Assembly (NCBI GenBank): GCA_024278985.1
Contig: JAJRSC010000006.1
Coordinates: forward strand, 1-28,374
Length of the DNA: 28,374 bases
Origin: an archaeon
GTDB lineage: Archaea; AGJL01; Methanococci; Methanococcales; Methanocaldococcaceae
Direction of reading: 5' to 3'
The translations under genes and the position numbers were made by a program. Positions within the stretch are counted from its first letter, which is position 1; each line of letters begins with the position of its first letter. This document shows, piece by piece, positions 103 to 28,374 of the stretch. The notes under the pieces were generated by a model. The model did no database searches. It saw nothing but the letters and a program-made list of their open reading frames with translations, and was not told the origin of the DNA.

Positions 103-1408
103 GTTAAAATCAGACCGTTGCGGTATGGAAACTTTTTTCTAATTGGGATAACATCAAGCTGATTCATTAGTTAAAATCAGACCGTTGCGGTATGGAAACG
201 CATTCTACATAGTAAATCAATAATCTCTGTAATTTGTTAAAATCAGACCGTTGCGGTATGGAAACATAACACTTCTTAATTCATGGGCTATAATATCTTC
301 AGTTAAAATCAGACCGTTGCGGTATGGAAACTTATATTGTATTTTTCTATGTATTTATCCAGTATTTTAGTAACTTGTTAAAATCAGACCGTTGCGGTAT
401 GGAAACTTATTACAAGGGTTTGGACAAGTTGATAACCAGATTTCTGGTTAAAATCAGACCGTTGCGGTATGGAAACACATATGGTATATCATTTGAGTAC
501 TTCAATCTCATGTTAAAATCAGACCGTTGCGGTATGGAAACCAAGACATTTTCTTTTTTATGCCCTGCATTCTACATAGTAAAGTTAAAATCAGACCGTT
601 GCGGTATGGAAACAAATCAAAAAAAAACGGGGGTGGAGACATGGCAAAAATGTTAAAATCAGACCGTTGCGGTATGGAAACATATATATTTCTTGTGTAA
701 TAGTTTTTAAATTTCTCCGTTAAAATCAGACCGTTGCGGTATGGAAACGTTTTTTTAACCAGTTTTTCAAATATTCTTTTACTGCCTCAATATCAATAGT
801 TAAAATCAGACCGTTGCGGTATGGAAACTGCACTACTTAGAAAAGTTTTTATATAAGTTTTAATGTTAAAATCAGACCGTTGCGGTATGGAAACAAATTT
901 TTAATAATTCTTGTGGGTCTTTTATGTTTTTCAAATCGTTAAAATCAGACCGTTGCGGTATGGAAACTGAATACATTTCAAATGCTGATAATATATTATT
1001 AAAGTTAAAATCAGACCGTTGCGGTATGGAAACTAATATGGTGATGAGATGGCAAAGGAGGAGCTTGAGTTAAAATCAGACCGTTGCGGTATGGAAACCA
1101 TGTATGTGGATTAACAGCATTAATGATTCAGGCATGTTAAAATCAGACCGTTGCGGTATGGAAACAATATACTGGTAAAGTCAGTTTTTTCAAGTGGTTT
1201 GATGTTAAAATCAGACCGTTGCGGTATGGAAACTGCTCAAGTAGATAATCTCTTATAAATTCCCCGTTAAAATCAGACCGTTGCGGTATGGAAACATCTC
1301 AGGTGTCATTACTAAGTACCCAGAAGGTGGCAAGTTGGTTAAAATCAGACCGTTACGGTATGGAAACTCTTTTTCCAATACCTTAATAATTTTCTAAAGT
1401 TAAAATCA
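103..1408 (+). CRISPR. CRISPR array: 19 full repeats GTTAAAATCAGACCGTTGCGGTATGGAAAC, a truncated 20th repeat and 19 spacers of 31-50 bp
   Basis: Repeats start at 103,170,236,302,377,447,512,584,652,719,799,865,938,1004,1069,1136,1204,1266,1338. Repeat 19 has G>A in the loop of the ACCG-TTG-CGGT hairpin. Only GTTAAAATCA remains at 1399-1408. The 3' ATGGAAAC is a typical Cas6 8-nt handle. No cas genes in the window. Confidence 0.99.
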
Positions 1409-2588: not shown

Positions 2589-3035
2589 ATGAGTGGTAGT
2601 AAATCACCAAGAGGAGAATTTGCTGGAAGAAAATTAAGATTAAAAAGAAAATGGTGCAGATGGCACGATTATAGATATGTAAAAAGAGTTTTAAGATTAA
2701 AAGAGAAGTATGACCCATTAGAAGGAGCTCCAATGGCAAGAGGTATTGTTATTGAAAAGGTTGGTTTAGAAGCAAAGCAGCCAAACTCTGGAATTAGAAA
2801 GTGTGTAAGAGTTCAACTTATAAAAAATGGTAGAGTTGTTACAGCATTCTGTCCTGGAAATGGAGCTATAAACTTTATCGATGAACACGATGAGGTTATT
2901 ATTGAAGGTATTGGAGGACCAAAAGGTCCAAGAGCTAAAGGGGACATTCCTGGAGTTAAGTATAAAGTTATTATGGTTGGTAGAAATTCATTAAAAGAAT
3001 TAGTAAGAGGAAGACAAGAAAAAATCAAGAGATAA
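2589..3035 (+). CDS. rps12: 30S ribosomal protein S12 (uS12)
   Basis: [20 protein letters not shown] and [10 protein letters not shown] motifs. Start set at ATG 2589 after GGTGA (track uses GTG 2580). Confidence 0.98.
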
Positions 3036-6640: not shown

Positions 6641-7987
6641 TTAATAGATTAAGTATTTTTTAACTTCCCAATCAGTAACTGCAGTTCTAAATTCATCCCA
6701 TTCTTTTCTTTTAATTTCCATCCAATTTTCATATATGTGCTTACCTAATGCTTTTTGTAAGACGTCATCACATTCTAACATATCCAATGCTTCTTTTAAG
6801 TTTGCTGGAACTGATTCAATTCCTAACTGTCTTTTTTCTTCTTCACTCATCTTAAATATATTTTTCTCAACGGGTTCAGGTGGTGTTAATTTTCTTTTAA
6901 TTCCATCTAAACCTGCAGCTAACATACATGCAAATGCTAAATATGGGTTACATGATGGGTCTGGAGCTCTAAATTCTATTCTTGTTGCTTTTCCTCTTGG
7001 TGCAGGAACTCTAATTATAGCACTTCTATTTTTGTTAGCCCATGCAATATTTACAGGAGCTTCATATCCAGGAACTAATCTTTTGTATGAATTAACTAAT
7101 GGGTTAGTTATAGCGACTAATGCTTTAGCGTGTTCTAATATTCCAGCTATATAGCTTAAACATATTTCACTTAATCCATTGTATGGTCCATTTTCATCAT
7201 AAAATGAAGGTTCTCCATTAAACCAAACACTTTGGTGGCAGTGCATTCCATTACCATTCATTCCATAAAATGGTTTTGGCATAAATGTAGCTTTTAATCC
7301 ATGTTTTTTAGCTATATTTTTAATAGTCATCTTAAATGTTACAACACTATCAGCAGTTTTTAATGCATTGTCAAATTTGAAGTCAACTTCATGTTGTCCT
7401 GGGGCAACTTCATGGTGAGATGCCTCAACATGGAAGCCAAGGTTTTCCAAAGCTAAAACAATATCTCTTCTTATATCAGGAGCATCATCTAATGGTTCAA
7501 CATCAAAGTATCCTCCATCATCTGCTGGAATCCATTTATGTGGATTGTGAGGGTCTCTTTTTAATAAAAAGAACTCTGGTTCTGGTCCAACAAAGAACTC
7601 TCCTTTTTTCTCTTCTTTTAATTCATTTAAAATAGAAATTAATCTACTTCTTGGGTCTCCTTCAAATGGAGTTTTCTCATCTTTGTATACACTACATATA
7701 ACTCTTGCTACACTTTTCTCTTCAGGTCTCCATGGTAAAACAGAAAGAGTTGATAAGTCAGGTTTTAATAACATATCTGATTCTTCAATTCCAACAAAAC
7801 CAGTTATAGAAGACCCATCAAACCAAACTCCAGTTTCTAATATCTCTCTTAATTCTTCTTCTCCTTTTGCTCCAGTTTTTACAGGATATGCAACATTTTT
7901 TGGAAATCCTAAGATATCAACAAATTGGAATCTTATAAATTTAACATTATTATCTTTTATGTACTTTATTGCTTCTTCAACATTCAT
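6641..7987 (-). CDS. glnA: Glutamine synthetase type I
   Basis: FDGSSI, GPEPEFF, HHEVAPGQHE, ATFMPKP, NSYKRLVPGYEAP, RIEFRAPD. Start set at 7987 after GGTGAG (track start 7999). Confidence 0.98.
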   Translation of the reverse strand: MNVEEAIKYIKDNNVKFIRFQFVDILGFPKNVAYPVKTGAKGEEELREILETGVWFDGSSITGFVGIEESDMLLKPDLSTLSVLPWRPEEKSVARVICSVYKDEKTPFEGDPRSRLISILNELKEEKKGEFFVGPEPEFFLLKRDPHNPHKWIPADDGGYFDVEPLDDAPDIRRDIVLALENLGFHVEASHHEVAPGQHEVDFKFDNALKTADSVVTFKMTIKNIAKKHGLKATFMPKPFYGMNGNGMHCHQSVWFNGEPSFYDENGPYNGLSEICLSYIAGILEHAKALVAITNPLVNSYKRLVPGYEAPVNIAWANKNRSAIIRVPAPRGKATRIEFRAPDPSCNPYLAFACMLAAGLDGIKRKLTPPEPVEKNIFKMSEEEKRQLGIESVPANLKEALDMLECDDVLQKALGKHIYENWMEIKRKEWDEFRTAVTDWEVKKYLIY

Positions 7988-13914: not shown

Positions 13915-13988
13915 TGGGCCCAGCCGGATTCGAACCGGCGACCTTCGCCTTGTAAGGGCGACGTCATAGCCAGCTAGACCATGGGCCC
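13915..13988 (-). tRNA. tRNA-Val (anticodon UAC), no intron, CCA not encoded
   Basis: Reverse complement GGGCCCATGGTCTAGCTGGCTATGACGTCGCCCTTACAAGGCGAAGGTCGCCGGTTCGAATCCGGCTGGGCCCA forms a cloverleaf with TTCGAAT T-loop and CTTACAA anticodon loop. Confidence 0.97.
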
Positions 13989-27125: not shown

Positions 27126-27893
<768 letters not shown>

Positions 27894-27952
27894 TTAATCA
27901 CCATATCCTTAAATTCAAATAAATTAATAAAATTTTTTAAAAAAATAAAATT

Positions 27953-28050
27953 GTTGGAGGGTCCTCTTAACGAGGTTCCCCTCCAACTCCTGCAACATAT
28001 TAGCAGGATTCAGGATACCCCAAAGATGGTTAGCGTTGCGCCCACCCCGT
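27953..28050 (-). ncRNA. Putative ~100-nt structured non-coding RNA (family not identified)
   Basis: About 55% GC (53/97 by hand count) in very AT-rich flanks; several helices; TTTATATA 24 bp upstream on the minus strand; U-tract immediately downstream; no ORF. Confidence 0.75.
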
Positions 28051-28073
28051 ATATAATTTAATTGTATATTCCC

Positions 28074-28081
28074 TATATAAA
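28074..28081 (-). promoter_or_regulatory. TATA box of the putative ncRNA
   Basis: Minus-strand TTTATATA at canonical archaeal spacing from position 28050. Confidence 0.65.
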
Positions 28082-28174
28082 AATATCTATTTGATTAATG
28101 TAAATATTTTATAGTCAAATTTTTAGAAAAATTAAAATTGTTATGTCTTTACTTTCTATTAAATATATTTGGAT

Positions 28175-28374
28175 AACATTTATCACGCTAAAAATTTTTT
28201 ATTTTTAGTTTAGAAGAATTTAATCGGTTATTTTTTAATTTTAAGGATTTTTATCAATTTTCTAAGGGTCGCGTATTTTAATTATTTTAAATATTTAGAT
28301 GTAGTGAATTATCGAGATTTTTAAAAGATTTTTGACAGTTAATTTTAAATTAAAATTTCCCCAATAAAAAAAAC
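28175..28374 (+). repeat. Probable 5' part of another CRISPR leader (Methanocaldococcus long-repeat element), cut by window end
   Basis: Non-coding. TTTCTAAGGG...ATTATTT.AAATATTTAGA..TAGTGAATTATC.AGATTTTTAAAA resembles, from recollection only, the long leader preceding M. jannaschii arrays. Boundaries approximate. Confidence 0.45.

Follow-up and report, generated by a model that had tools for sequence, protein, structure and literature searches.

The GC-rich island upstream of thi4

We analysed a stretch of 28,374 nucleotides, referred to below as the window, from an archaeon of the family Methanocaldococcaceae (assembly GCA_024278985.1, contig JAJRSC010000006.1, positions 1 to 28,374 of the forward strand). 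Its genome, G000, is available as a 1.1 Mb assembly that is 86% complete. The subject of the analysis is a short GC-rich element, whose minus-strand sequence occupies positions 27953-28050 of the window and which a first-pass annotation had described as a structured RNA with its own promoter, directly upstream of thi4. At this locus we find a hairpin with the form of a selenocysteine insertion sequence (SECIS), joined to two stretches that are complementary to the mRNAs of two selenoprotein genes, hdrA and fwuB. All of the evidence presented here is computational, and it is from this evidence that we infer the function of the RNA.

The GC content is 0.53 across 27950-28049, compared with 0.13-0.18 in the 100-nt windows on either side. 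The minimum free energy (MFE) fold of 27945-28055 on the minus strand at 37 °C has an energy of -43.7 kcal/mol (z -3.90, equalled by 0 of 200 shuffles), and that of the plus strand -36.1 kcal/mol (z -3.87, equalled by 2 of 200). Together with the promoter- and terminator-like signals described below, the GC island and its fold bear out the earlier description of a GC-rich structured RNA on the minus strand. The neighbouring open reading frame (ORF) at 27893-27126 of the minus strand is Thi4 (PF01946, E 2.4e-89), and its start lies 59 nt downstream of the element on the same strand, as had been annotated. A TATA-like TTTATTAA (27924-27932, minus strand) stands between the U tract of the element and thi4, with GGTGA 6 nt ahead of the ATG. 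It is likely that thi4 is transcribed from a promoter of its own, with a very short leader.

A perfect TATA box, TTTATATA (28074..28081, minus strand), preceded by an A-rich stretch that resembles a transcription factor B recognition element, is found 25 nt ahead of the G that begins GGGGUGG (28048). A TATA-like 8-mer (at least 6 of 8 positions matching, at least 7 of 8 being A or T) has its 3' edge 22-25 nt before this G in 14 of the 15 copies of the element, the exception being G004. This spacing agrees with the rule for M. jannaschii, where it is 23±2 nt in 126 of 134 mapped promoters (PMC2699501, in the part available), and fits the promoter that had been proposed for the element. The G004 copy (L014 810-880) has no TATA box, is GC-rich for about 60 nt upstream and carries an altered 5' helix, AACGGUGG. 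Published tables reportedly contain 10 presumptive non-coding RNA promoters of M. jannaschii, and this one may be included. At the other end, the last hairpin is followed by a U-tract terminator, UUUUAUUUUUUU (27939..27950, minus strand).

The element was found by blastn in 14 of 16 same-genus relatives, the two misses being assemblies that are about 86% complete, while no copy was detected among 24 genomes from other families; a pattern scan of genome contigs returned 12 stretches, two of which were chance hits in bacteria, and in the record of M. indicus SL43 its two 20-mer matches are about 880 kb apart. In 11 of the 14 relatives it is found 3' of a gene that encodes 435 aa and has a single TGA in frame, at a distance of 50-70 nt in ten of them and about 210 nt in G004. 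This gene encodes formylmethanofuran dehydrogenase subunit B, fwuB (TIGR03129, 632 bits), and is the last gene of the hdrA-vhuDGAUB-fwuB cluster. The element is away from fwuB in four genomes: it lies upstream of thi4 in G000, between two genes of opposite strand in G002, before a PII-like gene in G008 and after a ksgA-like gene in G013, where fwuB is 3.9 kb and one convergent gene away. Thus the fwuB context occurs in 11 of the 15 genomes, thi4 adjoins the element in one, and the remaining three have other contexts.

Raw RNA reads of one relative (run X22) cover L005:1502-1611 to a depth of 158-509; in the final 330 nt of fwuB the depth is 0-2, and past the element it is 0-1.3. From this step in depth the 5' limit is placed near L005:1501, the homologous first G, with no clustered read starts listed; adapter-bearing read ends fall at L005:1600-1608, in the homologous U tract, and the coverage climbs from 5' to 3'. 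These data show a discrete RNA in the relative, about 100-108 nt long and bounded by the two ends just given, its strand being assigned from how TATA box and U tract are laid out. Logan contigs of the RNA runs X1, X2 and X5 span the stretch or break uninformatively, and no transcript ends were seen in them. The earlier suggestion of a stand-alone small RNA (sRNA) is strengthened by this discrete RNA, by the TATA box and U tract, and by the opposite-strand neighbours in G002.

The search of Rfam that had been proposed for the island yielded no family, either at gathering score over the whole window or for five related loci, and at E≤10 over 27850-28200 it gave 4 chance-level matches only (mir-2818, trypanosome rRNA, rli43 and ARRPOF). 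The island was matched neither by the models of thiamine pyrophosphate (TPP) or other riboswitches nor, at gathering score or E≤10, by the Hgc models (HgcC/E/F/G of M. jannaschii). To our knowledge HgcA, HgcB and HgcD are not in Rfam, and the island RNA may be identical with one of them.

A SECIS hairpin and two predicted antisense guides

The 3' part of the element forms the hairpin GUUGGAGGG-GAA-CCUC-GUUAA-GAGG-A-CCCUCCAAC (27953..27987, minus strand), which was detected by a pattern scan and by a covariance model, R2, built from 26 SECIS hairpins of the genus under a stated structure. Its layout (9 bp / GAA / 4 bp / 5-nt loop / A / 9 bp) has all parts of the Methanococcales SECIS architecture: a GC-rich basal helix, GAA opposite a single A, G-C flanks, a short upper helix and a loop. 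A methanogen SECIS motif with this architecture is described in the accessible part of PMC11881835. The hairpin scores 36.5 bits with R2 (E 9e-8). When 34 candidates were scored in G000, the model gave exactly 6 hits at E≤10, which follow vhuD, vhuU, fruA and selD, overlap the end of a HesB-like selenoprotein gene, and include the island hairpin. Both-side, that is compensatory, changes are seen at 6 of its 13 pairs among the 15 homologues, and in 11 of the 14 same-genus relatives its ortholog is the hairpin that stands 3' of fwuB. In these 11 it accordingly lies in the untranslated region (UTR) of a selenoprotein mRNA, as a SECIS in cis does, which is not the case in G000. By its sequence the 3' hairpin is a canonical methanococcal SECIS, and activity in selenocysteine (Sec) insertion is predicted for it. 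An archaeal SECIS had been on the checklist of the first-pass annotation, which nevertheless missed that the last hairpin is one. The fwuB SECIS of M. jannaschii was reportedly described in 1997. As a side observation, the HesB-like selenoprotein gene (95 aa, TIGR01911; G000:C2:61887-62208, L067:1388-1709) has its SECIS overlapping the end of the ORF, and the ORF divergently upstream of it is putatively SepSecS-like, judged by sequence alone.

The 5' part of the element has a different content, which the first-pass annotation overlooked: it is antisense to two selenoprotein mRNAs. When the element was searched against its own genome, a second match of 31 nt at 94% was obtained on contig C12, inside hdrA and antisense to the coding strand, in the context ...DDCAL-TGA-ILAPKMVSVANHP.... 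The core of this guide 1, CGCAACGCUAACCAUCUUUGGGG (28018..28040, minus strand), is a 23-nt perfect complement of the hdrA mRNA (G000:C12:5557-5579). The duplex begins at +10 from the U of the hdrA UGA(Sec) codon, leaving a 7-nt spacer after the codon. The predicted 5' end of the RNA, GGGGUGG (28042..28048, minus strand), provides the 5' helix of guide 1 as a 7-bp complement of CCACCCC in the same mRNA. The hdrA duplex therefore consists of 23 bp, a small internal loop and 7 more pairs, 30 nt in all.

The pairing with hdrA is preserved where the sequences change. Among the 23 core columns in 14 genomes, 17 are invariant and four carry both-side compensatory changes, and the 4 of 322 cells that are non-canonical are all at helix ends. 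In G010 a C->U change in the element stands opposite hdrA AGC->AAC (Ser->Asn); in G000 and G008 a U->C change stands opposite GCA->GCG. For G013, three changes in hdrA were forecast from the element before hdrA was fetched, and they were found as CCG, GTC and CCA: two fall in the guide 1 core and one in the 7-bp helix (U for G opposite CCC->CCA), whose row in this genome was read by eye. Cognate pairs of guide 1 and hdrA have 0.07 mismatches on average, compared with 0.41 for non-cognate pairs. In the other family these hdrA codons differ without constraint at their synonymous positions, and no antisense copy was found there. Since the internal-loop difference between guide 1 and hdrA is kept in all genomes, gene conversion is an unlikely source of the match.

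Guide 2, GGGGUAUCCUGAAUCCUGC (28003..28021, minus strand), was found by a duplex search against fwuB and is a 19-nt perfect complement of the fwuB mRNA (G000:C16:13937-13955). Counted from the U of the UGA, its duplex begins at +26, about 23 nt after the codon. The two guides are adjacent and overlap by a shared GGGG run; guide 2 is separated from the SECIS by a linker (27988..28002, minus strand) that varies in sequence and length among the 15 copies, and whose 3' part in G000 can pair back on guide 2 (UCCUGC/GCAGGA). Covariation over 15 genomes is seen in columns 11, 12, 13, 16 and 1 of guide 2. The pairing is UGA/UCA in G000 and G008 and UAC/GUA elsewhere (a Ser versus a Val codon). A G/C pair is seen independently in G008 and G013, and a U/A pair in G002 and another in G012 and G016. 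The mean number of mismatches is 0.73 for cognate and 1.76 for non-cognate pairs.

Both guides are specific within the genome. On both strands of G000 we looked for stretches of 14 nt or more that are exactly complementary to the leading 60 nt of the RNA, and only three occur: the 23 nt in hdrA, the 19 nt in fwuB and one AT-rich 14-mer. Both long complements sit just 3' of in-frame TGA codons. Since related genomes are not independent, we counted the lineages in which compensatory change took place: guide 1 has at least 3 of them and guide 2 at least 4, and the compensatory columns number at least 9. Complementarity to mRNAs encoded elsewhere is thus kept by covariation, as is expected of a trans-acting sRNA. 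Nearest-neighbour energies at 80-85 °C give -0.4 to 0 kcal/mol for the self-fold of the 5' half, and -27/-23 and -16/-13 kcal/mol for the two predicted duplexes; the SECIS is also predicted to persist.

Targets without a SECIS and guides in cis

In G000 the RNA, hdrA and fwuB are on three contigs, C6, C12 and C16. The fwuB gene is fully assembled (C16:13551-14855) inside a 78-kb contig and is followed by 37 AT-rich nt and then by the next gene; neither the pattern nor the R2 model finds a SECIS on C16. The scanned flanks of fwuB in G000, G002 and G008 contain no SECIS-like hairpin by pattern, and R2 at E≤1 has no hit next to fwuB in G002, G008 and G013. Directly next to fwuB in G013 stands a convergent gene, and the sole SECIS in the scanned stretch is the element itself, 3.9 kb off. 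The 3'UTR of hdrA in G000 has 67 nt and contains only a short kink-turn-like (K-turn-like) hairpin; the SECIS core is missing, with the short hairpin alone present, in G000, G008, G013, G002, G014 and G003. No complementarity to hdrA or fwuB was found in the flanks of the other SECIS elements of G000, where all runs are ≤10 nt. The Sec genes without an adjacent SECIS are therefore exactly the two that are addressed by the orphan RNA, and since neither possesses a SECIS or shares a contig with the RNA, the latter would have to act in trans in G000.

The K-turn-like hairpin deserves a separate remark. It has the form AGAUGA-stem-loop-stem-CUGAUGA (G000:C12 ~6985-7015, L066 ~2985-3015; also L105, L106 and L102), and its flanks enclose a full SECIS in G015, G016 and G011. 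It may be a site for an L7Ae-type protein.

The order of guide, linker and SECIS is also found within single mRNAs. The selD gene of G000 (C30:28830-29935; L068/L112) carries at its stop codon an 18-nt perfect complement of its own mRNA, directed to +12 from the U of the UGA and followed by a 33-nt linker and the SECIS. Such a cis guide of 17-22 nt, with many compensatory changes, is present at selD in all 11 parsed genomes of the genus and in G019 of the other family, and absent in G020. In G015 (L105) the 3'UTR of hdrA has its own cis guide of 28 nt upstream of the SECIS, which targets +38 from the UGA, beside the target of the sRNA. In the other family, hdrA 3'UTRs contain cis guides of 20-25 nt in G019 and G028 (L048/L049) and of 21 nt in G033 and G036 (L061/L062). 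The fwuB 3'UTRs of the other family (L072, L076, L079, L083, L084, L088 and L089) have a homologue of guide 2 of 9-17 nt upstream of the SECIS; runs of 9-11 nt in the fwuB or hdrA UTRs of this family are within the range of chance runs, which are typically 7-10 nt long with a maximum of 13 in 300 windows, and we counted them only because the same codons are targeted. A related arrangement was reported in 2025 for the SECIS in the 5'UTR of fdhA1, whose flanks are complementary to its own ORF, conserved in Methanococcales and longer in thermophiles (PMC11881835, available text). In the literature searched we found no printed case of complementarity between SECIS flanks and an ORF beyond fdhA1.

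Possible roles of the RNA

We think it probable that the element is a free-standing SECIS RNA, guided by antisense pairing and acting in trans on hdrA and fwuB. Its gene would produce a small RNA of about 100 nt, running roughly from 28048 to 27940 on the minus strand between its own TATA promoter and its U-tract terminator, with a 5' part composed of two antisense guides for the hdrA and fwuB mRNAs and a 3' part that carries the SECIS as cargo. Because the pairing is antiparallel, the SECIS would in each duplex hang from the end nearer to the UGA, so that the RNA would park a SECIS, and possibly a ribosome-pausing helix, right behind the codon to be recoded. From what is generally known of recoding signals, a helix 7 nt after the UGA would meet the mRNA entrance of the ribosome while the UGA occupies the A site. 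The data establish the shape and orthology of the SECIS, the covarying complementarity, the separate gene locations and a discrete transcript in a relative, and from there we infer that pairing takes place in the cell and that it is the pairing which permits Sec insertion. We also lean, with less assurance, to the wider view that this is the first natural trans-acting recoding signal, a guide RNA for two mRNAs, and the extreme case of a general and hitherto unnoticed Methanococcales rule, by which guides bring the SECIS beside the UGA, as they would do in cis in selD, hdrA and fwuB.

A number of observations weigh against this view of the RNA. In guide 2 of G010, 3 of the 19 columns are mismatched without compensation, one of them as A.C, and an end mismatch is found in G001 and G014. 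Synonymous sites are only modestly more conserved in the targets than in their flanks (the distinct codons per column are 1.64 versus 2.29 and 2.00 versus 2.83). The X22 library was apparently size-selected, so that a primary transcript and a processed 3'UTR are indistinguishable in it. Five relatives (G011, G005, G015, G016 and G012) have a canonical SECIS of their own at hdrA, and variants are present in G009 and G001; guide 1 is thus not always the sole route. If hdrA and vhuD are co-transcribed in G000, the former might be served by the vhuD SECIS, which lies about 490 nt downstream, and since this genome is 86% complete, a SECIS on unassembled DNA is possible. Finally, reporters in M. maripaludis, a mesophilic host, indicate that a SECIS works at 520-679 nt from the UGA without positioning (PMC9622424, as far as the available text goes). 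ORF-complementary flanks made no significant difference to activity in the same host (405±75 versus 385±77 mU/mg), with mRNA about 3-fold lower and activity per mRNA about 2-fold higher (PMC11881835, available text).

One may argue that the RNA pairs with the hdrA and fwuB mRNAs in order to control them, by blocking or pausing at the UGA, by cleavage or by stabilisation, and that the SECIS is a sensor or decoy for Sec-decoding factors which, for example, couples these mRNAs to the selenium supply. Complementarity and covariation fit any role that depends on pairing, hdrA of several relatives has its own SECIS, the loss of reporter mRNA caused by complementary flanks points in the same direction, and the rise of X22 coverage from 158 to 509 looks as if the guide part were trimmed. 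However, such a regulator leaves the decoding of fwuB, which is intact with its in-frame TGA, unexplained in the four genomes without a nearby SECIS. Also, the element is orthologous to the only SECIS of fwuB in 11 relatives, and the SECIS is always at the UGA-proximal end, as in the cis cases of selD and fwuB. We therefore regard an antisense regulator as unlikely.

It is far less probable that the hairpin is an ordinary cis SECIS of a neighbouring selenoprotein gene missing from the assembly, with functionless antisense matches. The contig does end 324 nt upstream of the element in an incomplete genome, and the element is directly 3' of fwuB in 11 relatives. Yet the 324 AT-rich nt upstream contain no minus-strand ORF of at least 30 aa, fwuB of G000 is fully assembled elsewhere, and in G002 the element lies between two genes of opposite strand. 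Moreover, compensatory columns numbering at least 9 are not accidental relics, and the internal-loop difference speaks against gene conversion.

We find it hardly credible, too, that the 5' half works through its own three-way junction, by binding a ligand or a protein, without hdrA and fwuB. The junction had been drawn by hand in the first-pass annotation and is reproduced by the minus-strand MFE fold at 37 °C with its z of -3.9, and the 5' half is almost invariant across the 15 copies. Among the homologues, the UCCUGC/GCAGGA hairpin is present in G000 alone of the 15 copies, and in G013 the CCA/UGG hairpin is disrupted by a U->C change that preserves the pairing with hdrA. In the RNAalifold analysis of the 15 homologues the junction is absent from the consensus, and the 5'-half pairs predicted there, which are other pairs, have 0 compensatory changes versus 6 in the SECIS. 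The self-fold is also worth about 0 kcal/mol at 80-85 °C, and no Rfam family corresponds to it.

A thi4 leader, or the thiamine- or sulfide-responsive attenuator of thi4 that the first-pass annotation had offered, is favoured by the position of thi4, 59 nt downstream on the same strand in this genome. It can be dismissed almost entirely, since by that annotation's own criterion homologues unlinked to thiamine genes refute a cis-regulatory role (of 15 genomes, only G000 has thi4 next to the element), Rfam gave no match to TPP or other riboswitches, and the U tract and TTTATTAA lie in between. Elsewhere in the window we note a clustered regularly interspaced short palindromic repeat (CRISPR) array with 20 repeats (103-1367, plus strand; Rfam CRISPR-DR13) and a tRNA gene (13915-13988, minus strand; 69.8 bits).

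The antisense-guided SECIS RNA that we prefer can be compared with several known systems. Methanococcal SECIS elements have been defined in vivo (PMC9622424 and PMC11881835, both in the parts available), and the island hairpin has the same architecture and is an ortholog of the fwuB 3' hairpin; it differs in being off any selenoprotein mRNA in G000, with promoter and terminator signals of its own and two guides on its 5' side. No mention of antisense guides at fwuB or hdrA was found in the literature searched. The fdhA1 type also joins a SECIS to a complement of the ORF shortly 3' of the UGA, and the idea of positioning is the same, but its flanks of 7 and 10 nt stand on both sides of a SECIS in the same mRNA, 43 nt from the UGA (PMC11881835, available text). 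The island has guides of 30 and 19 nt, both 5' of the SECIS, directed to two mRNAs and in 4 genomes encoded at a separate locus. With the bacterial SECIS, a coding-region hairpin immediately 3' of the UGA (PMC1802603, available text), it would share, once paired, a structured, factor-recruiting element behind the UGA. Unlike that system, the island version would consist of two molecules and has an archaeal-type hairpin, and we claim no membership.

Trans-encoded base-pairing sRNAs and box C/D RNAs are established guide systems. The island RNA would resemble them as a short, stable RNA with a putative gene of its own and 19-30 nt of covarying complementarity to two targets; its cargo, however, would be a recoding signal, and it would not silence, modify or cleave. 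A guide RNA carrying a recoding signal was not found in print in the literature searched. A related idea is the 'antisense tethering' of a SECIS from another mRNA, in which a SECIS is likewise borrowed by an antisense interaction, a speculative proposal concerning viral and host mRNAs in eukaryotes (PMC4997913, available text). The island, in contrast, would be a dedicated archaeal gene, with covariation in its support.

SECIS elements are defined as cis-acting. If our view is true, this would be the first known SECIS signal to act from a separate molecule, and tethering beside the UGA, not covalent linkage, would be what counts. Archaeal SECIS elements have no known binding partner according to the available text of PMC11881835, and the RNA, being only about 100 nt long, would make a compact bait with which to look for the SECIS-binding factor that is missing. 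It would also suggest that Sec insertion might be programmed at chosen codons. For the genus, the antisense-guided RNA would account for Sec genes that are without a SECIS, namely fwuB in four genomes and hdrA in six, and would provide a rule for gene callers.

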